64,000 bases of DNA, taken from a virus. Positions 603 through 32,293 of the stretch are shown one piece after another. The notes under the pieces were generated by a model. The model ran no database searches and had not been told where the DNA came from. It was given only the letters and a program-made list of their open reading frames with translations. How positions within the stretch are numbered: the stretch's first letter is position 1; each line of letters starts with the position of its first letter. Where the stretch lies: positions 96,001 to 160,000 of the IMG/VR virus record IMGVR_UViG_3300037042_004723; one strand, 5' to 3'. Both the position numbers and the translations under genes were made by a program.

Positions 603-1106
603 ATGTTTAAGTCTCTCATCTCCGAGTGCCTCGCCTACCTCTCCGAAGCAGGCGAGGAGAACCAGCCCGTCAAGGCGCCCAGGAAGCACAAGCATGATCG
701 AGCCGCCGAGCGGACTGGTCACCTCTTGAACACACCACTTTCGAGCATGTCTCGCAGGAAGATGCTCAAGACGATCCCCCACCTGCACCACCACTTCGAG
801 AAGGGGCACGGCAAGGGCGAGGGAGACTACCGAACGGTAGACCTGGATGACCTGAATACCCTTAGCAAGCATGCTGAGCAGATCTCCAACGACGCGAATG
901 CAATCATGCGGATGCCTGGACCGGCGCACCACCTGGCTGGTCACCTCTGCAAGCATGTTGCGAGCGCTCACGAGCGGATGAGCAAGTACTGGACTGACAA
1001 CAGTGACAACGAGTCCGCCGAGCTTCACGGAAGCGAGAGCGCCAAGTATGGCGACATGGCCAAGCACCATCACAAGGTTTCCAAGCGCCACGGGTACGGT
1101 TACTAG
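603..1106 (+). CDS. His-rich hypothetical protein with the same N-terminal leader
   Basis: 167 aa, 19 His; N-terminus MFKSLISECLAYLSEA; GAGGAAA upstream. Confidence 0.75.
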   Translation: MFKSLISECLAYLSEAGEENQPVKAPRKHKHDRAAERTGHLLNTPLSSMSRRKMLKTIPHLHHHFEKGHGKGEGDYRTVDLDDLNTLSKHAEQISNDANAIMRMPGPAHHLAGHLCKHVASAHERMSKYWTDNSDNESAELHGSESAKYGDMAKHHHKVSKRHGYGY

Positions 1107-1179
1107 TCCGCCGAGATGGACTTGAACCAGCAACCTATCGCTTATAGGGCAGCCGCTATATCCATTGAGCTATGGGATC
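1104..1179 (-). pseudogene. Chimeric tRNA-like gene, anticodon TAT
   Basis: GATCCCA-TA-GCTC-AATGGATA-TAGC-G-GCTGC-CCTATAA-GCGAT-AGGTT-GCTGG-TTCAAGT-CCATC-TCGGCGG-A-CTA. tRNA spacing and T loop are intact, but the acceptor stem does not pair and the anticodon stem pairs poorly. Confidence 0.7.
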
Positions 1180-1183
1180 AGAA

Positions 1184-1436
1184 AGGTGACTCTCCACGTC
1201 CGAAGTGTTTATCGGCCGCTGGCTTGCGCCAACCATGCCCGGTCGACCAAGCCTTGCGGCTCACCGACTCCGGGATCTACCCTCGCCTGGTAAAGAGTCT
1301 AAAAAGAGGGGCCGCCGCCCCGGATGTTTAATGTGCGCGGGACCCTAGGTTCGACCGACGCAAGCGCTTGCGCTGCTATTGCGTGAGAAGTGCTCGATGC
1401 TGTTTTGGATGATAACCATCGGACTCCGGCTCACCT
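1184..1436 (-). ncRNA. Candidate structured non-coding RNA (~250 nt), family not recognised
   Basis: ORF-free gap closed by nested end-to-end helices (AGGTGA/TCACCT, GTCCGA/TCGGAC, TTATC/GATAA). Internal hairpins GAGCC-GCAA-GGCTT, GTTGGC-GCAA-GCCAGC and GGGGC-GGCG-GCCCC. Same strand as the tRNAs. Confidence 0.55.
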
Positions 1437-1442
1437 AAAATG

Positions 1443-1715
1443 TCAGGCCTCTGCGGTTCCGATCGGAATCTGGAAGGAGAGTCCCTCCCCTTCCAGGAAT
1501 CTCGCGTGGAGGCGGTTGATCAGCTGGTCGAAGGTGAAGCTGTCATCTGACGAGCCAACGTGCGTGTGGTCCTCGCCGATGTAGAGGGTGATGGCATTCC
1601 CTCCCCAGTCTGGCCCGAACGAGACAACTGGAGCCGTTGGATCTTTGCCGGCTGCGGCATCGCAGAGCCGGACAATCTCTTTCAGTATCTCTTCGCATTT
1701 CTCAGCTGTCGTCAT
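1443..1715 (-). CDS. Hypothetical protein (90 aa)
   Basis: ATG at 1715 (MTTAEKCEE...). The track start at 1742 lies inside tRNA-Glu and was trimmed. Confidence 0.7.
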   Translation of the reverse strand: MTTAEKCEEILKEIVRLCDAAAGKDPTAPVVSFGPDWGGNAITLYIGEDHTHVGSSDDSFTFDQLINRLHARFLEGEGLSFQIPIGTAEA

Positions 1716-1717
1716 CG

Positions 1718-1790
1718 TGACCCCGGTGAGAATTGAACTCAACGTCTTCGCTGTGAAAGAGCGACGTACTAACCATTATACGACGGGGCC
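1718..1790 (-). tRNA. tRNA-Glu (TTC)
   Basis: GGCCCCG/CGGGGTC acceptor, D stem GTAT/GTAC, anticodon arm TCGCT-CTTTCAC-AGCGA, T loop TTCAATT; one T-stem mismatch; no encoded CCA. Confidence 0.88.
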
Positions 1791-1802
1791 GTGATTGTCA
1801 CG

Positions 1803-1873
1803 AGCGTACCGAGGGAGTTCAACCGAGGTCGATCGCTTACAAGGCGATCATTCCGCCACCGAACTACTCCACA
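1803..1873 (-). pseudogene. Chimeric tRNA-like gene, anticodon TGT (Thr)
   Basis: Good D arm (GTTC/GAAT) and perfect anticodon arm ATCGC-CTTGTAA-GCGAT. T stem CTCGG/CCCTC and acceptor TGTGGAG/GGTACGC do not pair. Confidence 0.7.
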
Positions 1874-1897
1874 GTAAGATCGTGTATATTCAAGTCT

Positions 1898-2071
1898 ATG
1901 AACGACAAGCGAAAGCAAAGCCTCTACTTCCCAGAAGACATGCTGGCGGAGGTCCAGGCCGAAGCCACTCGCCTGGACCGCTCGCTCTCTTGGGTGGTCC
2001 AGCGCGCCTGGACCCTCTCAAGGGAGAAGCTGAAGGAGATCCCTTCAATCAACCAGCCAACAGAGACAGAC

Positions 2072-2074
<3 letters not shown>
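1898..2074 (+). CDS. MXAN_4361/MXAN_4362-family (TIGR04563-like) small ribbon-helix-helix-type protein
   Basis: Not in the ORF track. 58 aa: MNDKRKQSLYFPEDMLAEVQAEATRLDRSLSWVVQRAWTLSREKLKEIPSINQPTETD. The KQSLYFPE...DRSLSWVVQ.AW signature was recognised from memory as a myxobacterial family. Confidence 0.8.
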
Positions 2075-2148
<74 letters not shown>

Positions 2149-2154
2149 GGTCAG

Positions 2155-2183
2155 ACTCTGCGCAAAAATCTGCGAATAGTCAA
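2155..2183 (-). promoter_or_regulatory. Sigma70-like promoter of the tRNA cluster
   Basis: TTGACT-N17-CAGAGT, ending 6 nt before the tRNA 5' end. Confidence 0.5.
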
Positions 2184-2298
2184 GGCCGAGGTGATGTCCA
2201 GCTGTAAGTATATGAATTCATAATATACACCGTAGCGTAGGGCGCGGTGTCTTACACGTGGTTGATAGGTGAACGGACCGTTACATTACTGACAACAC

Positions 2299-2326
2299 TT
2301 GCTTTACCCTGCATTGTTGGCATAAT
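2299..2326 (+). promoter_or_regulatory. Divergent sigma70-like promoter
   Basis: TTGCTT-N16-CATAAT with extended -10 TG; upstream of the GGGAGG RBS of the gene at 2354. Confidence 0.45.
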
Positions 2327-2353
2327 CAAGGTCATCCCAACAGGGAGGCCCCT

Positions 2354-2680
2354 ATGAAGTACACACGAGTTCTCATCGCGAAGGTTGCCCTTCGAGTCGC
2401 TTCGGAAGACGAGGTCTTCTGGGTGGAGAAGTGCATCAAGGAAGGCTGCGGCTGTGCGGAGGAGATCAAGAACATCCGTGCGCTCTCCAGCCTGCCCAGG
2501 ACGCACTCCTGCGTCGAGGATGCGGCCCTGATCGTTATCGCTGACAAGAACAAGATGTCCATGTCCGACGAGGACCACATCTTGTCCTGTGGGCGCTGCG
2601 CAAGGATTGGTCAGTACATCGCCAGCATGCCGTTCCCGGCCACCCCCGCCCAGACGAGGTCGCTAGCCCTGGCCGGGTAA
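2354..2680 (+). CDS. Cys-rich hypothetical protein
   Basis: 108 aa, GGAGG RBS, CxxxxCxC and HxxxCxxC motifs. Confidence 0.75.
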   Translation: MKYTRVLIAKVALRVASEDEVFWVEKCIKEGCGCAEEIKNIRALSSLPRTHSCVEDAALIVIADKNKMSMSDEDHILSCGRCARIGQYIASMPFPATPAQTRSLALAG

Positions 2681-2703
2681 CGCTTCCACGACCAGTGGCC
2701 GAC

Positions 2704-2746
2704 GGCCAGCAAGCCTAGAGATAGTCCTGCTGGCCTTTTTTGTTTT
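2704..2746 (+). terminator. Intrinsic terminator
   Basis: GGCCAGCA-N16-TGCTGGCC followed by TTTTTTGTTTT. Confidence 0.65.
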
Positions 2747-2785
2747 CTACAATGTCTCTAGACAATTGGATCTGTTATCGATAGC

Positions 2786-3067
2786 GTGGCTGCGATGAAG
2801 GCTCTGCTAGCGCTAGCAATGGCTGGGTTACTAGTCGTTGCGACGATCGGGCTATCCGGCGAGGGGGCCGTCTGGACCAGATACGTTGGCGCAGGGATGG
2901 TGTTCGCTCTGCTGATGCTGATCTTGACCGGGGTATCGAACATCCCAAGCACGACAGATCTCAAGAAAATGATGATGGGCGCTGATCCTACTATGGCTCC
3001 GAAGTCCATGCCGGTCGTTCCCGACGACGATGACGAGCTTCCTAGCCGGCGCAGCGCCCGCAACTGA
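2786..3067 (+). CDS. Small membrane protein (two TM segments)
   Basis: Two hydrophobic stretches then a charged tail; stop overlaps the next start; exact start uncertain. Confidence 0.65.
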   Translation: MAAMKALLALAMAGLLVVATIGLSGEGAVWTRYVGAGMVFALLMLILTGVSNIPSTTDLKKMMMGADPTMAPKSMPVVPDDDDELPSRRSARN

Positions 3068-3687
3068 TGTCGAGTCGCATTCTTATACTTGACGTCGATG
3101 CTGACAAATACGACGGCATCGTAGAGGCGCTTCGCAAGAAGCCTTCGGTCCGCGTCGTGTCCATGGACCGCGAGGCCCGCAGGCACCTTCGTGAGTGCCC
3201 GGCGTGCTGTCGGAAGCTGTCCAAGGAATCGGCATTTACGATCGACGAGAAGATCATCGACGCCCTGATCAAGGTCACGCAGCGGATGCGGGTCGCCAAG
3301 ACCGTCGTCTTGGTGAACGAGGACAATCCGCAATCCGCCTTGTCATCCATGGAGCACGAGCGATGCGTCGAGGTAGACGCTGTGGTTGCTCAGCGTGCGG
3401 TAACCCTGGGCCTCCTGAAGCCGTTTATGGACGGCGCCCGGCTGACTCACTACGTCAGTGCGTCCGGGCTGGAATTCCTGTCGGGTAACAAGCCAGCCTC
3501 GCCCTGCACGATGCATGTGCTCGATGGCGAGGTCGTGGAGACCAGCGGAGAGATGATGATCGAGAACGTAAAATTCAAGGATGTCCACCGAGCGACATCC
3601 GTAGCCAGAGATGGGGCCAGGGCTGTGAAGGCCATCCCCCAGCACGTGACGAACTTCGTAATTAACGGCCAGATGAGCCTTATTTAA
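3067..3687 (+). CDS. Hypothetical protein with CxxC and a C-terminal QMSLI motif
   Basis: 206 aa, TGATG coupling; ends NGQMSLI. Confidence 0.75.
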   Translation: MSSRILILDVDADKYDGIVEALRKKPSVRVVSMDREARRHLRECPACCRKLSKESAFTIDEKIIDALIKVTQRMRVAKTVVLVNEDNPQSALSSMEHERCVEVDAVVAQRAVTLGLLKPFMDGARLTHYVSASGLEFLSGNKPASPCTMHVLDGEVVETSGEMMIENVKFKDVHRATSVARDGARAVKAIPQHVTNFVINGQMSLI

Positions 3688-3691
3688 GAGG

Positions 3692-3973
3692 ATGGCGATG
3701 ACGAAATCAGATTTGATCCGATGGGTTTCCGTGAAGACCGAGATTTCTTACCCCGAGGCAGAGGTGGCGGTTAACGCCTTCTTTGATACAATGACAACCG
3801 CTCTTAAGGAGAACCGGCGCGTCGAGCTTCGTGGATTTGGATCGTTCTCCGTCAGGGACTACGACGGCTACATGGGCCGCAACCCACGCACCGGGGAGAC
3901 GGTCAACGTCGCCCCCAAGAAGATGCCGTTCTTCAAGGTCGGCAAGGAACTACGCGAAGCGGTCAACGGCTAA
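3692..3973 (+). CDS. ihfB: Integration host factor beta-like / HU-family protein
   Basis: TKSDLI...VELRGFGSFSV...GRNPRTGE...KKMPFFKVGKELRE matches the IHF-beta pattern. Confidence 0.85.
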   Translation: MAMTKSDLIRWVSVKTEISYPEAEVAVNAFFDTMTTALKENRRVELRGFGSFSVRDYDGYMGRNPRTGETVNVAPKKMPFFKVGKELREAVNG

Positions 3974-8635: not shown

Positions 8636-9238
8636 ATGGGCGCCCTCCTCTCTTTCCATTCCGTTTTCCGTGACTACACCGACAACTTCACCGAGTGGAA
8701 GCAGCAGACCTTTAAGTCGCTGTCAGCTTTGATGAAGCAGGTGATTACGGTTCACGAGAAGGCATGGACGGCCAAGTTGGAGGAGAACCTTACCCTGCCG
8801 CTCTCCATCTTTGAGAAGGCAGACGAGGTCCATCCTGGCGTCTGGATTGGGAGCTACTCGTCGGTTGTTGACGACGAGCTGAGCAAGGAGATCGACGTCG
8901 TTCTGAACATGGCCATCGAATGCGATTACACGCTGAAGGCCAAGACGCAGCTCGTCAAGATAGGCATCGAGGATGGTCGCCTCACGAACGTAGGCGTCTT
9001 CAGGAAGGCCGCAGAGGTCATTCACCATGCCAGGGAGTCTGATAAGACGGTCCTGGTGCATTGCGCGGCAGGCGTCAGCAGGAGCAGCACGGCGGTTCTG
9101 GCGTACCTGATGCTGCATGAGGGCATGGGCTGGGTGGAGGCGCTAGGGTACGTGCAGAAGAGCAGATCTTGCGTAAACCCTCATCCACTGCTCGTCAGAT
9201 CCATGATCAGAGATCTCGGCTCGGACTTCCTTCCGTAG
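8636..9238 (+). CDS. Dual-specificity protein phosphatase
   Basis: Intact VLVHCAAGVSRS (HCx5R) loop, upstream IED acid loop, and C-terminal R.CVNP motif. Confidence 0.92.
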   Translation: MGALLSFHSVFRDYTDNFTEWKQQTFKSLSALMKQVITVHEKAWTAKLEENLTLPLSIFEKADEVHPGVWIGSYSSVVDDELSKEIDVVLNMAIECDYTLKAKTQLVKIGIEDGRLTNVGVFRKAAEVIHHARESDKTVLVHCAAGVSRSSTAVLAYLMLHEGMGWVEALGYVQKSRSCVNPHPLLVRSMIRDLGSDFLP

Positions 9239-9297
9239 CGTGATCTTTTTTCGGAGGCACTAGGGCGCCGATCCACTAGATGTAGTGGTCGGCTTGG

Positions 9298-9339
9298 TGG
9301 CGAGCACTACTGGTCAAGTGCTCGCCATTCTTCGTTTTG
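9298..9339 (+). terminator. Intrinsic terminator
   Basis: TGGCGAGCACT-N8-AGTGCTCGCCA then TTCTTCGTTTTG; a second hairpin lies at 9268-9292. Confidence 0.7.
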
Positions 9340-9368
9340 TTGACATTGAAAGATCTGGCCGATAGCTT
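9340..9368 (+). promoter_or_regulatory. Sigma70-like promoter of the replication operon
   Basis: TTGACA-N17-TAGCTT. Confidence 0.7.
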
Positions 9369-9405
9369 GCGCGACCTACTGCGACACCAGGACGAGGAGC
9401 GCGCG

Positions 9406-9822
9406 ATGACGATGATGGTTGCTGGGAACTCTTACTATTCGGTTCCTGATCTTCGCAAGCGCAGGTGGTCTTCTGCTGCGATTAGGAAATTTCTTCCTGA
9501 AATCCCGGACCATGTTCAGAAGAAGCCGCCCTGGTTTCCGCAGTCCCAGAAGTCATCCAACGAAATGAAGTTCTGGCGCACGGACAGGGTACACAACGCT
9601 GAGAAGTCCAGCGAGTTCATCGAGTGGATGTCCGGCGAGGCTATTCGTGCCGAAGCGTATCAGCGCACCAACGAAGCACGGCTAAGGAATATTGCCCAAC
9701 GTCAAATCCCTGACCCTCCGCAGGGACATGTCTCGCTGGAAGATCAGTACAAAAACATTCGCGAGGAGAGATCTTCCAAGTCAGCATCGTCGGCTGCCAG
9801 AAAAAACAGGATGCGGCCATGA
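9406..9822 (+). CDS. Hypothetical protein
   Basis: GAGGAG RBS then ATG at 9406; the track start at 9337 overlaps the promoter. Confidence 0.7.
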   Translation: MTMMVAGNSYYSVPDLRKRRWSSAAIRKFLPEIPDHVQKKPPWFPQSQKSSNEMKFWRTDRVHNAEKSSEFIEWMSGEAIRAEAYQRTNEARLRNIAQRQIPDPPQGHVSLEDQYKNIREERSSKSASSAARKNRMRP

Positions 9823-11090
9823 CTGATCCTCGAAGTGAATTATCTGAGGTCGTCAACGAGGATTGGACCTTTGACGTTGTTCGCACATACGTGCTGGGCG
9901 TTGAGGCCTTTGATCTGAACATCTCCGCGATGGAATTGCGGCTCCTGATTATGCTGAGAATCCGCGCTTCCGGCGGGCGGAATAATCACGTTTCAAACGA
10001 GACCTTAGCCAAAGACCTTGGCGTGCAGAAGAACGCCATCGCTGGCTACATGACGAACCTGGTCAAGCAGGGATACGTCGTGTGCAAGTCGCGAGGATAT
10101 GGGTCTCCGACGCTCAAGACCATCAAGTCTATGGTCACGAGATACGATGACGACATTCTGAAGATGACCAGGAGGGACCTGTTCGGGGCAGGTCGTTCTG
10201 ATGAACTTCTCGAACGCCTTCATCACCCAACGGCTGGCCGGAAACCGGTTGACAGTGCCTCCAAGTCCAGTAACACCCGAACGGGTGCTACTGGTGGAGG
10301 GGCGTCCAGTAGCACGCGATCGGATACCATGGAGGCACGCGATCGGGTGACTCTAGAAGCACGCGATCGAGTGACTGAAGTAGATAAAGAGATAAATCAA
10401 AATGAATTAGATTCCGCGACCTGTGGTCGCGACGCGACTGAAAATTCCGGAAGAAGATTCCGGAAGATTGGTCATACCAGATCAGGAGAGTCCTATGACA
10501 AAGACACTGGTGAGGTATTAGATTCTGTCGTTCTTCCTACTCAAGATCCGGAGAAACTTCGCGCCATGGGGTTGGACGAAGGCGACGTCCGGCAGGCGAG
10601 GGCCATGGCGGCTGCGGTCCAGGCTGTCACCAGGAACGCCAAGGTGGCCCATGAGCGCGATGAGATGCTCCTAGCGAGAAAGGCCCAGGACGAGCGTTCC
10701 GGGCTCGCCAAGACGCGCAGGCTGGCTCGTGAGGAGGAGCGCCTGGCCAACAAGACGGCCGGCGGCAGGTTCTACGAATGGGCACAGGTCGAGTACGACC
10801 GCTTCTTCCCGACGATTAGGATGACCAAGTGGATGAAGACCGAGTTCTCGCAGCTTAAGACGTTGCGCGAGGCTTGCCATAACGACGACGTGCTTGTTCG
10901 GAAGTCCTGGTCGTATCTGTGCGAGCACTGGGACGAACTGACAAAAAAGTTGAAATTAGCCGACTCTGCCCCGACTATCGGCCTGCTCCTGGCGATACGG
11001 GCTCGGATCGTTCCGCTCGTGCAGGAGAGGCAGACCGATCGGCAGTACGCCGAACGCTCTGCGACACCTGGGAAGCTTGGAGAATGGTGA
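9819..11090 (+). CDS. Replication initiator with N-terminal winged HTH (lambda O-like organisation)
   Basis: ELRLLIML...HVSNETLAKDLGVQKNAIAGYMTNLVKQGYV HTH; low-complexity linker carrying repeats; directly upstream of loader and helicase. Confidence 0.75.
   Translation: MTDPRSELSEVVNEDWTFDVVRTYVLGVEAFDLNISAMELRLLIMLRIRASGGRNNHVSNETLAKDLGVQKNAIAGYMTNLVKQGYVVCKSRGYGSPTLKTIKSMVTRYDDDILKMTRRDLFGAGRSDELLERLHHPTAGRKPVDSASKSSNTRTGATGGGASSSTRSDTMEARDRVTLEARDRVTEVDKEINQNELDSATCGRDATENSGRRFRKIGHTRSGESYDKDTGEVLDSVVLPTQDPEKLRAMGLDEGDVRQARAMAAAVQAVTRNAKVAHERDEMLLARKAQDERSGLAKTRRLAREEERLANKTAGGRFYEWAQVEYDRFFPTIRMTKWMKTEFSQLKTLREACHNDDVLVRKSWSYLCEHWDELTKKLKLADSAPTIGLLLAIRARIVPLVQERQTDRQYAERSATPGKLGEW
10255..10413. 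repeat. Putative replication origin: iterons plus AT-rich tract
   Basis: GCACGCGATCG at 10312, 10335 and 10359 (spacing 23 and 24); related inverted repeat CCAGTAACACCCG-AA-CGGGTGCTACTGG at 10267-10294; AT-rich 10377-10413. Confidence 0.65.
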
Positions 11091-11782: not shown

Positions 11783-12039
11783 TCAACTCGGATCTTGGCT
11801 TCACCTGCGAGGTCTGCGGCCAGGCTGTTTCTGCTGGTGATCGTGCCACTCGCGTCCTAGCGGAAACCTGCGTGATTGATCATGGCGGCGGTGCAATCAG
11901 GTCGAGAGGGGATCAGGAAGTGGTTTTTGCGGTGTTCCACGAGGAGTGCGTCTCCGGCACGTATGCCGCCCGCGAGTGCGACGTCGTTGCCTATATTTCC
12001 GAGGCCCGTGAAGTGGTCGAAACAAGTGGGGCCATGTAA
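11779..12039 (+). CDS. Small zinc-binding protein
   Basis: CEVC...FHEEC; coupled on both sides. Confidence 0.7.
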   Translation: MINSDLGFTCEVCGQAVSAGDRATRVLAETCVIDHGGGAIRSRGDQEVVFAVFHEECVSGTYAARECDVVAYISEAREVVETSGAM

Positions 12040-14645
12040 TGGATATCGATAGGGAGTTCATCAGGGCCGTTATTCGCGGTGGCAAGCCAGCCGTCCTTGC
12101 GGCGATCGATAGGGATATCGACAAGGAATTCGCGGTCGGCAAGGACGGCAAAGAGAAGGGGTCCTATCTGGCCGGCGATGGCAAGAAGGCGTGGGCCTTC
12201 CTGCGGACTCACTTCGGAAATTACGACGAGGTTCCATCGGTCGAGGCAATCGAGAGCAGCACCGGCATAGATCTGTCCGGCTCGATGAGCGAGTCCTACC
12301 AGTTCTTCCTGGATGAGATTTTCAAACGTCGATTGTGGCAGCTGCAGCGTCACGGGACGAAAGACGTCAGCGAAAAGCTGGAGGCCAAGGACCCCAACGG
12401 CGCCGCCGAGATCTGGATTGAGATCAATCGCAAGATTCAAGAGGAGGCGCTTACCGTCCGCAAGGTTGAGTCCCTGCTGTCGCTGGGCAGGGGCGTCATC
12501 GCAGATTACAAGGACGCGAAGGCTGGTAAGCGAGGCATCCCGACGCCATGGGCGTCGATGGACAACCAGACACTTGGATGGTGGCCGGAAGATCTTATCT
12601 TGTTCGTTGGCCGCCTCGGCGTTGGCAAATGTCTAGAAACTAACAGCATTCTTCAAGATCCGATTACCGGTGTTCAGCGGACTATTGGCGAGGTATTCGA
12701 CGACCCAGGCGCATCCATGGTCATGACATGGAGCAAGGAAGGCGGAGTTCATTCGGCCCCGATCACGGCCAAGATTGACACGGGCCGCAAGGAGTGCCTG
12801 AAGTTTACGCTGGGCACGGGTAGGACGATTGAAGTCACGCCAGAGCATCCGTTTCTCACGCCTGATGGATGGAAGCGCGCGGATGAGATTGCCAAGACGG
12901 ACTCGGTTGCGTTGCCCATGAGCATGCCATTCCCGCTCGCCCCAGCGGCGATGGAGGATGCCGAAGTTGACATCCTTGCGGTGATGCTGGCTGACGGATG
13001 CGTGGTCAATGAGAATTGCGAGTTCACGAAGGGCGATCCGGAGGTTGTTAGAATCGTCAGCGAGGCTGCCTTGACCATGGGCGTCGAGGTGGTCGCAAGG
13101 CCTGCCGAGTATCAGTATGGCTTCAGGAGCGCGTTCGGCGATGGCGTGAATCGCGTGCGCGACCTCATGCGCGAGCATGGCGTTTGGGGCAAGAAGTCGA
13201 CTGAAAAGACGATTCCGGACGCTGTGTTCAAGCTTGGACGGGAGCAGCTTGCTAGGTTCCTGTCGCTGTTTTGGATGTGCGACGGATACGTGAGCACTGG
13301 CGGCCCTGAGATTGTGCTGGCGTCTGAGAAGATGCTGATGCAGGTTCAGAGTCTACTGCTTCGCTTTGGCATCCAGAGCCGAATCAGCAAGAAGCCATCT
13401 CGCTGCAATGGGAAGACGTTTCCGGCCTGGAGGCTTCGGGTCTATTCTTTCTGTCAGGATTCTTTCTTGAAGTCGTTTCCGCTGTGGGGTCATCGTCTTG
13501 ATAACCTTAAGCATATGGCGTCATTGAAGAAGAACTCAAATGTTGGGTTCCCGAAACTATCCAAGAGTCTTCGGAGTGAGATTGAAGAACTATCCCGGGC
13601 TCGGGCTGGCAGATGGAGTGGTGGGCTTCTCAAGGAGGTTGGAAATCGCCTCGGATGGAAGTCTAGGTTCATGACGAGGTCATTGTTCGGCAAGCATGAT
13701 TCCCTGCTGATCGATCGCTTTAAGGTTTTCTGTGAAGTCTATGGCTGTACTGAAAAGTACAGTTGGCTTTGGGGTTCAGGCATTTTCTGGGATCTCGTCT
13801 CATCCATCGAGAATGTTGGCGAAAAGAAGATCTACGATTTGACCGTAGACCCAACGAGCTGCTTCATTGCGAACGATATCGTTGTTCATAATACCTGGAC
13901 GCTGGTCATTTGCGCTCACAAGGCATGGAAGGCCGGTCACAAGGTCTTGGTGGTCTCGACGGAGATGAACAAGATGCAGATGGCGCGGCGGTTCTTTGCC
14001 CTCCATTTGCGGTTGCCATACGACGAGATTCGGCGCGGCAAGTTAGGCGAGTTCGTCGAGAACAAGTTCTTCCAGGGCGTCGAGGAGATCCTGAGCGACC
14101 AGGGCATCGATATCGTTGCCGGTGATTTCGATTATTCGATCGACAATATCGCTACAGTTATCGCAGATATTAAGCCGCAGTTGATGTGTCTCGACGGTCC
14201 GTATCTGATCAAGAACGTCGGCAAGGACAGGCACGAGAAGGTGTCGAACACGTTCGACGACTTCAAGAAAATCGGCAAGCGGACCGGCGTTGCCACGATT
14301 ACCAATCTCCAGTTTAACCGCTCGGCCAAGACTGGGCAGTCCCAGACCATCGCCGCCGACAACATCGGAATCACCGACGTCGCCGGTTGGAATGCCGATG
14401 CCGCATATGGTCTCAATCAGAGCGATGAGATGAGGGCGAACTGGCAGATGGGCATCAAGGGTCTCAAGATTCGCGAAGGCATGCCTGACGAGTTCCTGAT
14501 CAACTGGAACCACGCAGCCATGGACTTCTCTGAGATCGGCGGCAGCCCCCAGCCTTCGCCGGCTGGCGCTGCACCCAAGAACATGGGCGGCGGCGATAGC
14601 TCGTTTGCCATCGAAGAGGAAGGCTTTGACGATGTTCCATTCTGA
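12039..14645 (+). CDS. dnaB: DnaB-like replicative helicase with intein
   Basis: GIPTPWASMD, Walker A GRLGVGK|T, STEM, CLDGPY; 447 aa after intein removal; ends EEEGFDDVPF. Confidence 0.92.
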   Translation: MDIDREFIRAVIRGGKPAVLAAIDRDIDKEFAVGKDGKEKGSYLAGDGKKAWAFLRTHFGNYDEVPSVEAIESSTGIDLSGSMSESYQFFLDEIFKRRLWQLQRHGTKDVSEKLEAKDPNGAAEIWIEINRKIQEEALTVRKVESLLSLGRGVIADYKDAKAGKRGIPTPWASMDNQTLGWWPEDLILFVGRLGVGKCLETNSILQDPITGVQRTIGEVFDDPGASMVMTWSKEGGVHSAPITAKIDTGRKECLKFTLGTGRTIEVTPEHPFLTPDGWKRADEIAKTDSVALPMSMPFPLAPAAMEDAEVDILAVMLADGCVVNENCEFTKGDPEVVRIVSEAALTMGVEVVARPAEYQYGFRSAFGDGVNRVRDLMREHGVWGKKSTEKTIPDAVFKLGREQLARFLSLFWMCDGYVSTGGPEIVLASEKMLMQVQSLLLRFGIQSRISKKPSRCNGKTFPAWRLRVYSFCQDSFLKSFPLWGHRLDNLKHMASLKKNSNVGFPKLSKSLRSEIEELSRARAGRWSGGLLKEVGNRLGWKSRFMTRSLFGKHDSLLIDRFKVFCEVYGCTEKYSWLWGSGIFWDLVSSIENVGEKKIYDLTVDPTSCFIANDIVVHNTWTLVICAHKAWKAGHKVLVVSTEMNKMQMARRFFALHLRLPYDEIRRGKLGEFVENKFFQGVEEILSDQGIDIVAGDFDYSIDNIATVIADIKPQLMCLDGPYLIKNVGKDRHEKVSNTFDDFKKIGKRTGVATITNLQFNRSAKTGQSQTIAADNIGITDVAGWNADAAYGLNQSDEMRANWQMGIKGLKIREGMPDEFLINWNHAAMDFSEIGGSPQPSPAGAAPKNMGGGDSSFAIEEEGFDDVPF
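12630..13892 (+). mobile_element. Intein in DnaB (LAGLIDADG, 421 aa)
   Basis: GK|CLETNS...TPEHPF...LAVMLADG...FLSLFWMCDG...IVVHN|T. Confidence 0.95.
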
Positions 14646-21112: not shown

Positions 21113-21426
21113 AAGCGAAGAATTCTGTCGTTTATGTCACCAGGACAGTCGGGCCAAATCGTGGCCCCACGACTGGGAGCGAAGCTGAAGACGTTATCGC
21201 AGTCCACAAGTTCGAGACTGAGCCTGCAAGGGTGACGGTGGACTATGCGCTGACGATCAATCTTGGGAATTTTGAGTCGGCCAAGATTGGCGTTTCCGTG
21301 AGCGTGCCTTGCTATGCGGAGGAGCTTGACCAGGCTTATGAATTTGCCCAGGCATGGGCAGAGGAACGGCTGACGCGCGAGCGGGACATGATCACGGCTG
21401 GCCGCGTTGGGCAGTCTTCACTCTAG
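21109..21426 (+). CDS. Conserved phage hypothetical protein
   Basis: TINLGNFESAKIGVSV motif; coupled start. Confidence 0.75.
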   Translation: MKAKNSVVYVTRTVGPNRGPTTGSEAEDVIAVHKFETEPARVTVDYALTINLGNFESAKIGVSVSVPCYAEELDQAYEFAQAWAEERLTRERDMITAGRVGQSSL

Positions 21427-21434
21427 GAATATTC

Positions 21435-23471
21435 ATGGCGAAGAAAACCAAAGAAGACGACAAGCCCAAGGTCGCGGATGACCGCGATGAGCAGCTCAGC
21501 GCCTATTTCAAGCAGGCTGAGAAGAACTACGGCAAAGGGGCCGTCCAGTTCGCTATGGATCATGGCCACGAGAACATGCCCAGGATTACTACGGGGATCT
21601 TGCCGCTCGATGTGAGCCTTGGCGGTGGGCTGCCAGTTGGTCGGGTTTCGATGTTCTACGGGCCGAAGTCTTGCCTCGATGCTGGTACATTTATTCAGTA
21701 CGAGGTTCGCGCTAAGGATGGTCGCAGGCAGAATCATAAAGGAGGGACAATTGAGCGACTATTTGCTCGATTCAATGGAGCCCAGGTTGGTGGGAAGGGA
21801 AGCTATCAGCGCAAGGCCTCTGCTGATTCTGAATTCTATGCCAAGTCAGTTGATGAAGACGGACGCATCCTCACGAATAAAATCGAAGGGGTCGTTGATT
21901 CTGGTGACAAAGAATGCTTTGAGCTGGCGTTGACGACTGGCGAAAGCATCATTGCTACAGCAGATCATCGGTTCTTTACAGGATCTGGGTACGTCAGACT
22001 CGGTGACATATCAGTAGGTGACACTGTAACAGTCCAGAAAAGAACCAAGCCGTCATCGGATGCGGAACAGGCTGCATCTCGTCGTTATATGACTGTGAAG
22101 CACCATCCGTTTGCGGCCTCGTATGAGGTTACCCCGGTTAACGAACGGACCAAGACGGTTAGAACTTACAGCTACAAGAAGCTGGCCAAGTCCAGGGCCG
22201 TCGTTGAGGCTGAGATAAATCGTCTTCCGTTTGATCAGTACATTGACGCGCTGAACAATGGAAAGTTCGATGGGTTTGTTTTTCTTGCTCAATCTCAGCA
22301 CGTTCACCACATTGATGAGAACTTTCTTAACGATAGTCTATCCAATCTGATGGTCATCGATAGTTCTTCTCATGGCTTGCTTCATGCCAGGGAAAGTAAG
22401 CTAGGCCTTGGGTATGCTCACGAAGTCAAGGTGGCTTCCATTCGTAGCGTCGGGATCAGGCATACGTATGACATCCAGATGCGAGCGCCGTACAATAACT
22501 TTGTGGCAGATGGGTTTATTGTCCACAATTCGTCCAAGACGACGTGTTTCTTGCGGGCCGTGGGCAGGGCGCAGCGCATGTGTTCGTCGTGCTGGACTCC
22601 GGCATTCCCAATCTGGAAGGTCGATGTATCCGGGTTGAAGCCGAACTGCGAGTGCGGGGACTACCGCAAGGTCAACGTTGCCTGGCTTGATGTTGAGGGC
22701 GTCTGGGATAGCACGTGGTCCCGGAAATTTCTGGACGTGAATCGACTGGTATTTTCGTCTCCTGAGACTGGTGAGCAGGCGTGCGATGTGGCCGATTCCC
22801 TGCTTCGGTCAGGGGCCGTCGATATCATCGTGATCGACTCCGTTGCGTTTATGACGCCCGTCGCCGAGATCGAGCGCTCTTCCTCGGAACCGACCATGGG
22901 CACCCAGGCGAGGCTTCTCGGCAACATGTTCCGTAAGCTGGTCTCCGGCACCAACGCCGTGTCTCAGCGCGACGGCAGGCGTCCGACGGTCTGGTTCACG
23001 AACCAGATCCGCATGAAGATCGGCGTGATGTTTGGCAACCCGGAAACCGTTCCAGGAGGAATGGCCCAGGGCTTTGCGACCTCTACTGAGACTCGGATGT
23101 CGCCGAGCAAGTATCAGGAAGACAAAGAGACCAAAATCATCACGAGCGTGGACATGAAGTTCCGCAACGAGAAGAACAAGACTGGCGTTGCGAAGATGGA
23201 AGGCGAGTACAGGCTTGTCCTCCACGACACCGAGGTAAAGAAAGTCGGCGACGTAATCGACGAGGACTACGCCATGAAAATGGGCCAGCAAACTGGCCTG
23301 ATTCAGCTTGGGCGCGGTCGGGCGTCAACCATCTGGGAAGGTCAGGAGTTCGACGGTCGATCTCTTCTGGAGCGCCACTGGATGATCAACCGAGACGAGT
23401 ATGAGGCGTTTAAGCTCAAGCTGATGAATCACATCAGGACCATCAGCATCGAGCATGAGGCGACCCTTTGA
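21435..23471 (+). CDS. recA: RecA/UvsX recombinase with intein
   Basis: TTGILPLDVSLGGGLPVGRV, DIIVIDSVA, QARL, NQIRMKIGVMFGNPETVPGG, KNK; 392 aa after splicing. Confidence 0.95.
   Translation: MAKKTKEDDKPKVADDRDEQLSAYFKQAEKNYGKGAVQFAMDHGHENMPRITTGILPLDVSLGGGLPVGRVSMFYGPKSCLDAGTFIQYEVRAKDGRRQNHKGGTIERLFARFNGAQVGGKGSYQRKASADSEFYAKSVDEDGRILTNKIEGVVDSGDKECFELALTTGESIIATADHRFFTGSGYVRLGDISVGDTVTVQKRTKPSSDAEQAASRRYMTVKHHPFAASYEVTPVNERTKTVRTYSYKKLAKSRAVVEAEINRLPFDQYIDALNNGKFDGFVFLAQSQHVHHIDENFLNDSLSNLMVIDSSSHGLLHARESKLGLGYAHEVKVASIRSVGIRHTYDIQMRAPYNNFVADGFIVHNSSKTTCFLRAVGRAQRMCSSCWTPAFPIWKVDVSGLKPNCECGDYRKVNVAWLDVEGVWDSTWSRKFLDVNRLVFSSPETGEQACDVADSLLRSGAVDIIVIDSVAFMTPVAEIERSSSEPTMGTQARLLGNMFRKLVSGTNAVSQRDGRRPTVWFTNQIRMKIGVMFGNPETVPGGMAQGFATSTETRMSPSKYQEDKETKIITSVDMKFRNEKNKTGVAKMEGEYRLVLHDTEVKKVGDVIDEDYAMKMGQQTGLIQLGRGRASTIWEGQEFDGRSLLERHWMINRDEYEAFKLKLMNHIRTISIEHEATL
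21672..22529 (+). mobile_element. Intein in RecA (HNH type, 286 aa)
   Basis: GPKS|CLDAGT...TADHRF...HVHHIDENFLNDSLSNL...FIVHN|S. Confidence 0.93.
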
Positions 23472-23851
23472 GCGAAGACAGGCCCAAGATGCCGTCGTAT
23501 TTCACTGGCCGCGAGCAGAAGAAGCAGCGGGCGAAATCGATGGCTCAAGAGAATCGGGTCGCCAAGAGCGTTGGCGGCAAGCGTCAAAAGGCGTCCGGTG
23601 CTCTGCCTGGTGTGCGCGGTGACGTGAAGTCGGTTGAGCTTCTCGGCGAGTGCAAGAGGACGGACAAGAAGTCGATATCGATTACGCTGGATTACTTGGA
23701 GAAAATCACCAAGGAGGCCAGCTTCTATAACAAGATTCCATGCGTGGCGATTGAAATCCAGTCGCCCCCGAAGTTCGTCAACAGGGACTGGGTTCTCCTG
23801 CCTGCCGGGTTCGTGCAGGAACTCTTGGAGGTTTATCGTGGAAGGAACTAG
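23468..23851 (+). CDS. PD-(D/E)XK nuclease, Holliday junction resolvase-like
   Basis: E..VAK...SGA...GDVK...GECKRT. Confidence 0.75.
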   Translation: MSEDRPKMPSYFTGREQKKQRAKSMAQENRVAKSVGGKRQKASGALPGVRGDVKSVELLGECKRTDKKSISITLDYLEKITKEASFYNKIPCVAIEIQSPPKFVNRDWVLLPAGFVQELLEVYRGRN

Positions 23852-24556: not shown

Positions 24557-24588
24557 TCCATGTGTTTGGATGGCTTCGCGAAAGAAAG

Positions 24589-24855
24589 ATGAGCAGGCGC
24601 AGAACCTCCATTGAGGAGGCTCTGCTTGAGCAGGCTTGCGTGTCGCTGCGTGGCGGTAGTAGGTTTCAATTTCGCGTAGATGAGATCGGCGGAGAAGATC
24701 AGATCCGCCGGTTCATCGTAAAGTTGTCCATGATGTTCGGTAGTAATGTTCGGGCGAATTGTGGACATGGCCTGATCACCATCTATGATGACGGGAGCCC
24801 TGACGGCACTACAGTCGTTGTGGCAATGATTAAGCATGGACCCACTTCTCAATAG
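24589..24855 (+). CDS. Hypothetical protein
   Basis: Fills the gap; start uncertain (24562 possible). Confidence 0.6.
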   Translation: MSRRRTSIEEALLEQACVSLRGGSRFQFRVDEIGGEDQIRRFIVKLSMMFGSNVRANCGHGLITIYDDGSPDGTTVVVAMIKHGPTSQ

Positions 24856-25627
24856 GTCGGCAGGTAGGGAGATGATCGCTCCTGCCATTGCAAAAACGAT
24901 CTCCGTGGCCAGCGGCAGGTTTATTGGGCTGTTCTGTGGAGCAGCTGATGTTTTCTTCATGGCCGAGCCTGATAGCGGAGTCCTGGTTGACTCCAGGAAG
25001 CCCATCATTGCTTTCTATGAGGCAATCCAGAGAGAACCAGATGCGGTTCACGACGAGTTGCAGCGCTTGTTGAAGCTTTCGTTTAGCGAGAGGACGTTTA
25101 ATCAGATTCGCTCCAAGTGGAATGGCAAGGACTTCGGTGTGCTGTTTGCCGCCAAGCTGCTGTATCTAAATAGGATCTGCGTCCCAGGCACGTTTTCCGT
25201 GGACCAGGGCCAGCGCTTCTCTGCCCTCTGGGGAGGCATGTCATCGCCACCTGGTGTCCCAAGCCTTGACGACATTCGCTTGGCGTCTGCTGCTTTGAAG
25301 CGGATGCGGCTGTACACGAAAGATTACGCATACGTCCTGCGTGCCGCCAGGAAGGGCGATGTTATCTATGTCGACGCCCCCGACTGGGGTGTCGACATCT
25401 CCTATGGTGGCGCCATGTTCACCGAGACCGATCATGTCAGGCTGTCGCGCCTCCTTCGTAAGGCGTCAGAACGCGGTGTTAGTGTTTTGGTATCAAACGT
25501 CGACTGCGATGCGGTGCAGCTTCTCTACGGCGGATGGGCGGACACGGAAGTATTCGACGGTGGCAGGCTTTTGATTTCTGCGATTGGGTCCGCGATTGAC
25601 CGTAGGCAGATGAGCCTATTCGGATAA
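24836..25627 (+). CDS. Dam-family DNA adenine methyltransferase homolog, catalytically degenerate
   Basis: Collinear with Dam (LYLNR, VIYVD, VLVSN); DPPY reads DAPD and EPFxGxG reads GLFCGAA; ends RQMSLFG. Confidence 0.82.
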   Translation: MDPLLNRSAGREMIAPAIAKTISVASGRFIGLFCGAADVFFMAEPDSGVLVDSRKPIIAFYEAIQREPDAVHDELQRLLKLSFSERTFNQIRSKWNGKDFGVLFAAKLLYLNRICVPGTFSVDQGQRFSALWGGMSSPPGVPSLDDIRLASAALKRMRLYTKDYAYVLRAARKGDVIYVDAPDWGVDISYGGAMFTETDHVRLSRLLRKASERGVSVLVSNVDCDAVQLLYGGWADTEVFDGGRLLISAIGSAIDRRQMSLFG

Positions 25628-26820: not shown

Positions 26821-27179
26821 ATAGGCCTCTTATTATCGATACGGAATGGATTCGTCCATTCGACGCGGGTGCGTCGCCCATGCCGTGCATGACGTGCTCC
26901 ACGGATTCTAGGTGGATCGTTGGCAAGCCTCCCAACGGCTATTTTTCGTGTGCGCGGTGCTTCCTTTACTCAAGCCCTTGGGGCAAGGAGAACAAGGCGA
27001 GGATCGGCGAGCTGGTCGTGGAGGTGGAGGGCGTTCTAAATAAGAAGATTTCAGACGATGGGATCGTCTGGTCAACAGAGGCTGACAGGATTCTATCGTC
27101 GATAGTTTCGATCTCTGGAATAGCCAGGGCTCGTGCGCAGAGAAGGCTCAGAGATGAAGGTTCTGGGTCTAGATCTTAG
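26817..27179 (+). CDS. Zinc-binding hypothetical protein
   Basis: CMTC...CARC. Confidence 0.7.
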   Translation: MNRPLIIDTEWIRPFDAGASPMPCMTCSTDSRWIVGKPPNGYFSCARCFLYSSPWGKENKARIGELVVEVEGVLNKKISDDGIVWSTEADRILSSIVSISGIARARAQRRLRDEGSGSRS

Positions 27180-27780
27180 CCTCAAGGGGACTGGCATCTG
27201 TGTGCTGGATGGCGATCCGGGTGATCAGACGCCGGCCATTCGCACGGAACTCGTTCCCCAGCCAGAGGCGAAGACAGTGGAGGCCAGGGTTCTCAGGCTT
27301 GTGGCAATCACTGAGCGCATTGTTCAGTTGATCAACGGCGAGCGTCCAGATCACATCATTATCGAGGCGGCTGCCAAGAACCAAGTATGGCAGGCGGCTG
27401 CCATTGGTGAGATTCATGGCGTTGTCAAGGTTCAGATCTACCTAGCGAGCGGCATGTTCCCGATGGTCAAGGAGGCCACGGAGATGCGTAAGGTCGTGGT
27501 TGGGAAGATCGAGAGGGTGATGGTCGCCACGACCGACGCCAAGGGCAAGGTGACCAAGCGAGCGTCATACGGTGACATCCCAAGCGCCAGGAAGGGGAAG
27601 GTGAAGAGGGCGACGGTGAAGGATGTGATCGAGGGTCGCCTGGCGGCGCAGGGATTGACGTTCCCGACACAGGATGAAATGGACGCCTATGTCGCGGCTA
27701 AGTACTGTTGGGGTAAGGTGACGGCTCCCCCAACAGGCACTCCCGATGACTCCAAAAAGGCGAAGACCAGGCGGACATAA
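27154..27780 (+). CDS. ruvC: RuvC-like Holliday junction resolvase
   Basis: VLGLDLSLKGTG, IIIEA, QDEMDA. Confidence 0.8.
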   Translation: MKVLGLDLSLKGTGICVLDGDPGDQTPAIRTELVPQPEAKTVEARVLRLVAITERIVQLINGERPDHIIIEAAAKNQVWQAAAIGEIHGVVKVQIYLASGMFPMVKEATEMRKVVVGKIERVMVATTDAKGKVTKRASYGDIPSARKGKVKRATVKDVIEGRLAAQGLTFPTQDEMDAYVAAKYCWGKVTAPPTGTPDDSKKAKTRRT

Positions 27781-30331: not shown

Positions 30332-30360
30332 AAGCCCGCGCTCATGCGGGCTTTGTTTTG
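30332..30360 (+). terminator. Intrinsic terminator
   Basis: AAGCCCGC-N6-GCGGGCTT-TGTTTTG. Confidence 0.75.
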
Positions 30361-30381
30361 TCCAGATCTTTGCGTAAAAAT

Positions 30382-30410
30382 TTGCGCGTTTGATCTGTTG
30401 GCAATAGTAT
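30382..30410 (+). promoter_or_regulatory. Sigma70-like promoter of the 30.4-38.8 kb operon
   Basis: TTGCGC-N17-TAGTAT, 8 nt before ATG 30419. Confidence 0.5.
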
Positions 30411-30418
30411 CCGACGGT

Positions 30419-32293
30419 ATGGCAGACGCTATCCCTGGAAAGAAGTCTCGGTGGACCTCTGAACAGGAGGATCTATTGCGTAAGCTATGGGGAACGCAGC
30501 GAGATATCGAACTTGCTAATGTCCTGGGCAAGACGATCAAATCGGTGCGGTCCAAGGCGACCGAGATGAACATTCGCGCCGAGAAGGGCCTCAGGACAGC
30601 ATGCAGGTCTGGTCGCGTATCTTATCCGTGGAGGGCAGACGAAGACCTTGTTCTTGTTAAGAATGTCGGGCACCTCAGCATATTCGAGTTGATGAACCTG
30701 TTGCCTCGCAGGAATCGCTTGGCCATCGAACGCCGTTGCTATGAGCTTGGCTTCTCTCCGACGCAGGGTACTCACACGCGCCTCCAGATAGAACGAGAGA
30801 CCGGATACGACTGGAGACAGATCCAGCGGGCCCGGGACGCTCTGGGTCAGGCTTGGAAGCGATACGGCACCCGCAAGTACATGATAACCTTTGATCAAGT
30901 TCAGGATATCATTGAGTATTTGCGGACCGAGACGAGAAAGTGGTCTCTCCACTACGACTTAGATCGGTGCATTCTTTGTGGAGTCTCTGGAGCTGAAGAG
31001 CGAACCAGGCATTCCGGCGATGGGCTTTGCAAACGATGCGTGAGTGGAGACACCAGGATTATGGTCCGGGGGCGCGGCCTTTTGCGCATTGATGAGATGA
31101 CTGACAGTGGAGAGTTCGAGGTGTGGTCAGGTAAGGCATGGAGGACTACTACGGCGGTGGAGTCTGGCGTTCAACCAGTCGTTGAGGTTCTATTGAATAA
31201 TGGTTCGAGGATCAAACTTACTGGCGATCATCCGATTTTGACTGATTCTGGAATGATTCACGCCCACGTAATCGATAACGAAAGACTTCCATTAGAATTG
31301 CCATCCGATGTCTGCTTTCCGGAAGTTGCCATGATTTCAAGCGTTAATTGGCATAGTGGTGGTCCGCATGAACAATTCCCACGTGAGTGGACTCGTGACG
31401 TAGGAATGTTCCTTGGTGTCGTCCTTGGTGATGGAGCAATGTCAGGTGGAGAATATCCAACGATTATAATTGGCCTCGGCCGGCAGGACAGAGACGACTT
31501 GATTCATCTCCGAGATGTCGTGGGTGGATGGTGCGGATCAAAGTCTCAAGTTGTTGATTTTGAAAGCAGTCCTAACAAATTTTGCGATGAGCATAGGCCG
31601 ATGTCACGCATTCAGTGGAGGGTCAAGTCTCTGATTGAATTCGTTGGGCAGCTTGGATTAGACAAAAGTCTGCCCATCGAGGAACGTCGGGTTCCTTCTT
31701 CTATTTGGACCGCCAGCGCATCAGGCGTTTCCGGTTTCTTGGCAGGACTGTTTGGTACCGACGGTGCTGTCAGTGTTAACGGTGCTGGCAAGATCGAGAT
31801 ATCAATGTCCTCCGTGAGCGCAGGATTGTTGGAAGACGTTCAAAATCTCTTATGTGCTTTTGGGATCAAATCATCGATGTGGTCGTACCCGAAGAAAGAG
31901 CAATATAAGCAACTATTTGCACTTAGTGTCTTTGGTAAGAAGAACGTTGATTTATTTACACGGCGTATAGGCTTTTCTTGTCGGAGGAAGCGGGATGCCT
32001 TGGCGAAGGCGATCTCGGAATCGACCATCGTTGGTCGAGGTAACCGCCATCTCTCCGTTGAGAGTGTTAGGGATGTTGGAGTCGAAAAGGTCTACGATCT
32101 TGTTAACGTGGGGGATGAGCGACAGTTCGTTGCTAACGGTATAAGTGTTTCAAATTGCTGGGATTTCCGTAGGCATGGTCGGGTCCAAGTGCTCGATGCC
32201 CTGCGGAAGGGAAGGGTGATGATTCTGACTGAGGAGATTTGGCACGCTTACATACGCGACGAACCAGAAGTGCGAATCGTTTCTGCAGTTTAG
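30419..32293 (+). CDS. Myb/SANT-like repeat and zinc-finger regulator, interrupted by an intein
   Basis: RWTSEQEDLLRKLW and PWRADEDLVL repeats; CILC...H...GLCKR|C zinc finger; 251 aa after splicing. Confidence 0.8.
   Translation: MADAIPGKKSRWTSEQEDLLRKLWGTQRDIELANVLGKTIKSVRSKATEMNIRAEKGLRTACRSGRVSYPWRADEDLVLVKNVGHLSIFELMNLLPRRNRLAIERRCYELGFSPTQGTHTRLQIERETGYDWRQIQRARDALGQAWKRYGTRKYMITFDQVQDIIEYLRTETRKWSLHYDLDRCILCGVSGAEERTRHSGDGLCKRCVSGDTRIMVRGRGLLRIDEMTDSGEFEVWSGKAWRTTTAVESGVQPVVEVLLNNGSRIKLTGDHPILTDSGMIHAHVIDNERLPLELPSDVCFPEVAMISSVNWHSGGPHEQFPREWTRDVGMFLGVVLGDGAMSGGEYPTIIIGLGRQDRDDLIHLRDVVGGWCGSKSQVVDFESSPNKFCDEHRPMSRIQWRVKSLIEFVGQLGLDKSLPIEERRVPSSIWTASASGVSGFLAGLFGTDGAVSVNGAGKIEISMSSVSAGLLEDVQNLLCAFGIKSSMWSYPKKEQYKQLFALSVFGKKNVDLFTRRIGFSCRRKRDALAKAISESTIVGRGNRHLSVESVRDVGVEKVYDLVNVGDERQFVANGISVSNCWDFRRHGRVQVLDALRKGRVMILTEEIWHAYIRDEPEVRIVSAV
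31037..32155 (+). mobile_element. Intein (LAGLIDADG, 373 aa) ending Ser-Asn
   Basis: KR|CVSGDT...LTGDHPI...LGVVLGDG...FLAGLFGTDG...ANGISVSN|C. Confidence 0.93.

Follow-up and report, generated by a model that had tools for sequence, protein, structure and literature searches.

Clamp-tethered, replication-coupled DNA methylation is textbook biology in eukaryotes. Methyltransferase folds can also be employed without chemistry, as in METTL14, a non-catalytic protein in which EPPL replaces DPPW and which acts as the partner of an active paralog. In eukaryotes, replication-coupled maintenance methylation involves the association of DNMT1 with PCNA (PMC9690074). The consensus for binding to the bacterial sliding clamp (beta) is QL[S/D]LF (PMC3716654). 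Beta-clamp-binding motifs are used by protein C of phage Mu (MuC), which is a transcription activator (PMC12867686), and the SocB toxin is likewise a client with a clamp-binding motif (PMC9690074). A full-text literature search of incomplete coverage returned no description of a Dam or other bacterial DNA methyltransferase with a beta-clamp motif. Here we describe a phage gene whose product has the Dam fold and decayed catalytic motifs, and ends in a peptide of the clamp-binding type.

The window that we analysed is a stretch of 64,000 nucleotides, bases 96001-160000 of a 197,279-bp IMG/VR record that CheckV rates as 100% complete. All features of the gene described below lie on the + strand. 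The gene occupies 24836..25627 and is an intact open frame of 263 codons, in agreement with the first-pass annotation, which had been made from the sequence alone. The public gene call for the same contig (P0276, 251 aa) begins at Met13 (24872 instead of 24836). We prefer the 263-aa start at 24836 since homologs conserve an M-[DE]-P-L-L N-terminus. This longer frame overlaps the upstream ORF at 24562-24855 by 20 nt.

The 263-aa protein matches the Pfam family PF02086, the D12 class of N6-adenine DNA methyltransferases (79.2 bits against a cut-off of 22, E 5.5e-22), as well as PHROG families of DNA methyltransferases. Its closest solved relatives are DpnM (E 7e-12) and E. coli Dam. AlphaFold2 models of the protein reached a mean pLDDT of 81 with 14 aligned sequences and of 87 with 47. 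Foldseek comparisons of the model gave TM scores of 0.81 against DpnM (2dpm) and 0.79-0.80 against E. coli Dam. The VIA-align superposition on E. coli Dam (2g1p) had a Z of 25.5 and an rmsd of 2.6 Å over 240 aligned residues, with model residues 1-251 covering Dam residues 4-270.

A word-indexed search of 5.8 billion proteins returned 13 close homologs (51-100% identity), all of them metagenomic. We refer to the clade of the window protein, which has 13 members from large, uncultured phages, as the dead clade, after its predicted loss of catalysis. A sister clade of approximately 46 proteins from related uncultured phages (P0015 and P0164-P0208; 40-50% identity) was recovered by exhaustive profile searching together with a further search that started from the nearest outlier. 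The members of the sister clade retain LLKWPGGKRR, ELFAG(G/S)AA, FNGLFRLN....FNV(A/P)W, DPPYWG, and a beta6-beta7 loop in which a His and an Arg are invariant. Because these elements are kept, we consider the sister-clade orthologs probably active methylases of the GATC type, judging from their sequences. Meanwhile, the earliest-branching member of the dead clade (P0013) is intermediate, with RWPGDR, DVPYW, and a retained loop. Searches for relatives in cultured phages returned nothing by megablast and only identities below 38% by tblastn, IMG/VR held no close relative besides the record of the window itself, and 185,579 species genomes gave only matches of 30% identity or less. Hence, these searches provided neither prophage copies nor a host assignment.

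Comparison of the two clades revealed decay of both the catalytic and the DNA-reading motifs. The active sister clade has 81 columns with a conservation of at least 93%. Of these, 23 are changed in the dead clade, and each of the 23 belongs to motif X, the motif I Glu, the recognition hairpin, DPPY, or the beta6-beta7 loop. The N-terminal motif X of the window protein reads LLNRSAGREM (aa 4-13; 24845..24874) where active orthologs have LLKWPGGKRR, and its positions 6, 9, 12, and 13 vary within the clade. Motif I, GLFCGAAD (aa 31-38; 24926..24949), aligns to EPFVGAGS of solved relatives and to E-L-F-A-G-G/S-A-A of active orthologs; its invariant Glu is lost and Asp38 is newly invariant. The first-pass annotation had described this motif as altered, which is borne out by the changes of Glu31 to Gly and of Ala38 to Asp, but the F-x-G core survives in this protein. 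The intact sister clade, too, has Ala for the third Gly of the motif (FAGGAA or FAGSAA). Motif IV reads DAPDW for DPPYW (aa 180-184; 25373..25387). The replacement of DPPY by DAPD had also been read from the sequence, and in our alignment D180-A181-P182-D183 indeed faces the DPPY of DpnM and E. coli Dam. Position 181 is A, S, L, or V in the clade, and position 183 is T, D, P, S, or Y.

The target-recognition hairpin, VPGTFSVDQGQRFSAL (aa 116-131; 25181..25228), is remodelled with respect to the FNGLFRLN....FNVA of active orthologs, and its residues V122, D123, G125, Q126, and R127 have become invariant in the dead clade. The beta6-beta7 loop, approximately 14 residues long in active orthologs, is deleted just before beta7, the last strand of the methyltransferase fold (RLLISA, aa 244-249; 25565..25582). 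The losses of the N-terminal KWPGGKRR motif, of the DNA-reading hairpin, and of this loop come in addition to those listed in the first-pass annotation. Formerly conserved columns that now vary in the dead clade are 6, 9, 12, 13, 116, 117, 181, 183, and 244, and variability at once-invariant sites suggests a relaxed catalytic constraint. The newly invariant residues include, besides those of the hairpin, R11, C34, D38, R54, and R172.

Not every catalytic position has changed, and the protein could still be an active methyltransferase or another SAM-dependent enzyme. Such an enzyme would have a divergent D-A-P-x-W site, maybe a new substrate or recognition sequence, and would be tethered to the clamp like its relatives. 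D180, P182, W184, D52 (motif II), and D163 are still invariant in the dead clade, and Y164 is kept next to D163 in motif III. Residual cofactor binding is possible, because these residues are invariant and the F-x-G of motif I is kept in the window protein. Some active adenine methyltransferases of the Erm and KsgA type have a hydrophobic residue for the first Pro of motif IV. The new invariant residues of the hairpin could signal a new specificity, and the gene is under strong purifying selection. However, the aromatic position of motif IV is T, D, P, or S within the clade, positions of motif X are variable, motif I lacks its invariant Glu, and Asp replaces the F-x-G glycine in 4 of 12 members. 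In addition, deletion of the beta6-beta7 loop has removed its invariant His and Arg. Taken together, we consider continued activity quite unlikely and favour a protein that has probably lost its catalysis.

The DNA-reading positions have decayed as well. The residues by which E. coli Dam reads GATC, which we take from published Dam-DNA structures to be K9, Y119, N120, L122, R124, and P134, are kept in the active sister clade, whereas all six positions are replaced in the dead clade. The window residues aligned to N120, L122, R124, and P134 are P117, T119, S121, and L131, and the sister clade has N, L, R, and A/P at these positions. The first-pass annotation had suggested a link between the Dam-like protein and GATC sites of putative iterons. 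Three direct repeats of approximately 24 nt (AGCACGCGATCG.GTGACT...) are indeed located at 10305-10379 in the window, and each unit holds CGATCG as had been observed. They lie inside the ORF at 9819-11090, which encodes a 423-aa HTH_36 protein, and by analogy with lambda O they could be an origin with iterons inside its own initiator gene. Nevertheless, the proposed link between protein and repeats is weakened, since other residues stand at the GATC-reading positions of Dam throughout the dead clade. The frequency of GATC is neither depleted nor enriched in a way that separates dead- from active-clade phages (O/E 0.81-0.96).

The gene of the dead clade is kept under strong purifying selection outside the decayed motifs. 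When the codons of seven clade members were aligned with those of one active ortholog, synonymous differences were saturated (pS 0.68-0.88), pN was 0.07-0.36, and dN/dS was 0.025-0.116 where dS was computable. The comparison among homologs that the first-pass annotation had proposed is thus at odds with neutral evolution. Net charge and pI did not differ between the dead and the active clades.

The C-terminus of the protein reads RRQMSLFG, as had been noted previously, and contains the peptide QMSLF (aa 258-262; 25607..25621). This peptide sits on a flexible tail (aa 250-263; 25583..25624) that lies outside the fold, with pLDDT values from below 50 to about 55, and residues 252-263 fall beyond the region aligned to E. 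coli Dam. The first-pass annotation had recognised here a motif of the bacterial clamp-binding type. This assignment gains strength from the comparative data: QMSLF fits QL[S/D]LF, the motif takes the form Q-[ML]-x-[LM]-F across the clade, and the peptides of UmuC (QLNLF) and Pol II (QLGLF) recur unchanged in some orthologs. In active orthologs, the tail follows the pattern [DN]-x-[RKN]-Q-[ML]-x-[LM]-F. It begins approximately 10 variable residues past beta7 and is followed by 0-15 variable residues. The dead clade has lost the beta6-beta7 loop, and beta7 and the tail remain.

We searched for a strict pattern, Q[LMIV]x[LM]F within the last 25 aa. It was present in all 13 dead members and in 36 of 46 active members, and a looser pattern raised the latter count to 44 of 46. 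None of two sets of other D12 methyltransferases contained the strict motif (0/148 and 0/66). Over the entire clade, 49 of 59 proteins matched the strict and 57 of 59 the loose pattern, against 0 and 1, respectively, of the 214 other D12 proteins. The difference in tail motif between the clade and other D12 proteins has a Fisher p of 1.6e-44, in which related members are counted and the counts are not independent events. Anchored on the Gln, conservation is high at the motif positions (Q in 59/59, L or M at +3 in 58/59, F at +4 in 51/59), and the linker and post-motif residues are variable. A C-terminal motif of this kind occurs in 1 of the 278 ORFs of the phage genome, and 0.1 would be expected from shuffled sequences.

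Strings such as R-K-Q-V-T-E-L-L-F occur at beta7 of ordinary Dams. We considered whether QMSLF might be beta7 itself and rejected it. In the active orthologs, a canonical beta7 (R-[RK]-x-V-[DN]-E-[VL]-[LI]-[IV]-S) is present and the motif comes approximately 10 residues later, the strand at 244-249 of the model aligns with the end of E. coli Dam, and none of the 214 other D12 proteins have the motif.

The order of events can be read from the distribution of the tail. In a quick maximum-likelihood tree, the dead clade is monophyletic (SH-aLRT 100) and is placed inside the tailed active clade, and the tail-less P0209 branches outside the tailed clade. P0209 (L092:10001-10816, on a 237-kb metagenomic contig) is a syntenic Dam with intact motifs that ends right after beta7. 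It marks either the state before the gain of the tail or a secondary loss. The same gene order is found around the dead-clade genes of L002 (from a 295-kb contig) and L005, around the active-clade genes of L006 and L091, and in the more distant L092. In each case the ortholog occupies the same slot within a module that runs from DnaB, primase, and RecA to an exonuclease, RuvC, and SSB. The sister-clade orthologs (P0015, P0164-P0208; loci L006 and L091) share both the module slot and the tail with the window protein. The most parsimonious order is that a Dam was present in the module, then gained the tail, and subsequently lost catalysis in one branch.

These data also bear on the possibility that the gene is a functionless, decaying relic and that the likeness of its tail to a clamp motif is accidental. 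Several of its catalytic motifs are degenerate, as a relic would have them, but the frame is intact in 13 diverged homologs with saturated synonymous sites (pN/pS 0.1-0.4, dN/dS 0.03-0.12), synteny is conserved, and the tail is conserved across the clade while absent from 214 other D12 proteins. The relic reading is contradicted by the purifying selection described above, and we hold it to be extremely improbable.

The Dam-like gene is located in a module of replication and recombination genes. Upstream, this module includes the HTH initiator-like gene with the iterons, DnaB (with an intein), a DnaG-type primase, RecA (with an intein), a Holliday-junction resolvase, and small ORFs. Downstream, it includes a zinc-finger protein, a Cas4-like PD-(D/E)XK exonuclease, a RuvC-like resolvase, and an SSB-like protein. 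Two different genes of the Holliday-junction resolvase type flank the Dam-like gene within 4 kb (23468-23851, phrog_2002; and 27133-27780, RuvC-like phrog_159). At least five genes of the genome bear inteins. Three of these are in the window, encoding DnaB (12039-14645; Intein_splicing and LAGLIDADG), RecA (21354-23471), and a 649-aa protein with a LAGLIDADG intein (30344-32293). Elsewhere in the record (G000) are an SNF2 helicase with a Hom_end intein (961-3804) and a 586-aa protein with Hint and LAGLIDADG domains (9019-10779). Unusually for a phage, the record also encodes a 1076-aa beta-propeller protein of multiple Kelch repeats, whose gene lies outside the window (78176-81406, - strand).

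Six-frame family searches of the whole 197-kb genome recognised no Pol A, Pol B, Pol III alpha, or DnaQ, and none of DnaN, gp45, PCNA, or a clamp-loader subunit of the delta-prime type; the absence of a polymerase rests on Pfam models, which a very divergent enzyme could escape. The largest unassigned ORFs encode SNF2 helicases, an Mre11-like phosphoesterase, a HerA-like ATPase, and the Kelch protein. With a genome of nearly 200 kb, the phage does encode DnaB, primase, RecA, an SSB-like protein, and two resolvases, but neither a polymerase nor a clamp, loader, or proofreading exonuclease that could be recognised. Since no polymerase, clamp, or loader is recognisable and RecA, DnaB, and primase are of the bacterial type, this phage probably borrows the Pol III holoenzyme of its host, beta included. 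No other DNA methyltransferase was found in the genome among the families PF01555, PF00145, and PF05869 or as a second PF02086 member, which suggests that the dead protein does not serve an active paralog as its partner.

The first-pass annotation had also suggested modelling the protein together with DnaN. Co-folding with E. coli DnaN, a stand-in that may not be the clamp of the host, gave a score of 0.55 (runs 0.51, 0.55, and 0.57), compared with 0.00-0.01 for three controls with unrelated proteins (best 0.01). The runs shared at least 72% of contacts with a partner pLDDT of at least 80, and no interface was reported. The mark used for such co-folds is reached by 58 of 80 solved complexes and by 2 of 110 mismatched pairs, and at scores of 0.60 or under it is reached by only 7 of these 80 complexes and by both passing mismatches. 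The score with DnaN may also reflect a memory of solved clamp-peptide complexes. Overall, the co-fold lends weak support to clamp binding.

The weak co-fold score leaves room for a partner other than the beta clamp. The tail might dock on an unrecognised clamp-like ring of the phage or on another protein of the replication and recombination module, in which case the dead Dam would be an adaptor in a phage complex. The module is tightly conserved and holds many proteins without known function. Clamp-binding peptides of T4-type phages are likewise C-terminal and hydrophobic, with a Leu-Phe-like end. Against this reading, the genome encodes no recognisable member of the DnaN, gp45, or PCNA families, nor a clamp loader or polymerase. 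Furthermore, the invariant Gln four residues before the Phe fits the bacterial QL[S/D]LF rather than the T4 type, and the co-fold controls with unrelated proteins stayed at 0.00-0.01. A partner other than beta thus seems rather unlikely, and the bacterial sliding clamp remains our preferred candidate.

Collectively, a clamp-docking peptide that is still present on a decayed and selected Dam suggests that the protein is probably a non-catalytic, clamp-bound replication factor. More specifically, we lean towards a non-catalytic mode of action in which this pseudo-methyltransferase uses QMSLF to dock in the cleft of a host beta clamp that sits on phage DNA. The first-pass annotation had arrived at a similar picture. 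Its two main elements, a fold retained after the presumed loss of catalysis and a clamp-type peptide on a flexible tail, agree with the sequence, structure-prediction, and comparative evidence; its link to GATC and the iterons is not supported. The roles that it had proposed for the protein, which may shield sites from restriction or methylation or block the host clamp, are candidates. The case is now stronger than it was, because catalytically intact syntenic orthologs carry the same tail.

We propose the following scenario. The ancestor would have been a phage Dam of the D12 class that gained a C-terminal beta-clamp-binding peptide. In this ancestral state, which would persist in the approximately 46 syntenic orthologs, the enzyme may be carried by host sliding clamps that stay behind on replicating phage DNA, and would methylate adenines immediately after passage of the fork, in a bacterial parallel to PCNA-bound DNMT1. 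The lineage of the window would have abandoned the chemistry: residues of the cofactor pocket, DPPY, the base-reading residues of the hairpin, and the beta6-beta7 loop have decayed. Strong purifying selection has kept the Dam fold, a basic surface, the newly fixed hairpin sequence, and the clamp peptide. The present protein might compete for the clamp cleft by occupying it, or serve as a fork adaptor in a phage that needs the host Pol III holoenzyme. As a broader and more tentative idea, which we put forward as a possibility below even likelihood, large phages that use host Pol III may have invented a beta-clamp-tethered Dam, one branch of which became a dead, clamp-docked DNA-binding protein that controls access to clamps on phage DNA. 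Such control could consist in excluding mismatch repair, Hda, or translesion polymerases, or in holding clamps for the recombination-dependent replication of the phage.

These findings may have implications for the understanding of phage replication. The active sister clade would offer a natural test case for clamp-tethered Dam methylation. As a pseudoenzyme in a phage replication module, the dead clade would be among the rare documented cases, and the path by which an enzyme became a clamp-bound non-enzyme would be clear, leading from a tail-less ortholog through tailed active orthologs and an intermediate member to the dead form. Together with Mu protein C, it would point to the host sliding clamp as a hub exploited by large phages without a polymerase. 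Two aspects appear to be new: a D12 Dam that bears a beta-type motif of the bacterial kind, in a phage with no recognisable clamp or polymerase of its own, and a derivative of Dam that retains the tail and is predicted to be catalytically dead.

Among known systems, the window protein is most similar to E. coli Dam, DpnM, and T4 Dam, with which it shares the fold of the whole core (Z 25.5, 23.1, and ~21, respectively), the order of motifs, the Asp of motif II, and the Asp-Tyr of motif III. It differs from them in having no KWxGGK, no motif I Glu, and no beta6-beta7 loop, in having DAPD for DPPY, and in the replacement of the hairpin residues by which Dam reads GATC. The C-terminal QMSLF tail is an extra of the window protein that none of the 214 other sampled D12 proteins have.

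The likeness to DNMT1 and PCNA lies in a DNA methyltransferase with a short clamp-binding peptide that acts on new DNA marked by the clamp, a logic that likely applies, by analogy, to the active sister clade. DNMT1 belongs to an unrelated class of C5-cytosine enzymes, it uses a PIP box and PCNA where the phage proteins would use QLxLF and the beta clamp, and it is catalytic, whereas the window protein is without catalytic motifs. MuC and SocB resemble the window protein in that a motif for the host clamp serves a purpose besides DNA synthesis, and occupation or overloading of the clamp cleft has physiological effects; unlike the window protein, neither the transcription activator nor the toxin has a methyltransferase fold. 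Finally, METTL14 provides a parallel for an adenine-methyltransferase fold that is kept with a degenerate motif IV and used for binding instead of chemistry. METTL14 pairs with an active paralog, whereas the genome of the window phage contains no other recognised DNA methyltransferase family.
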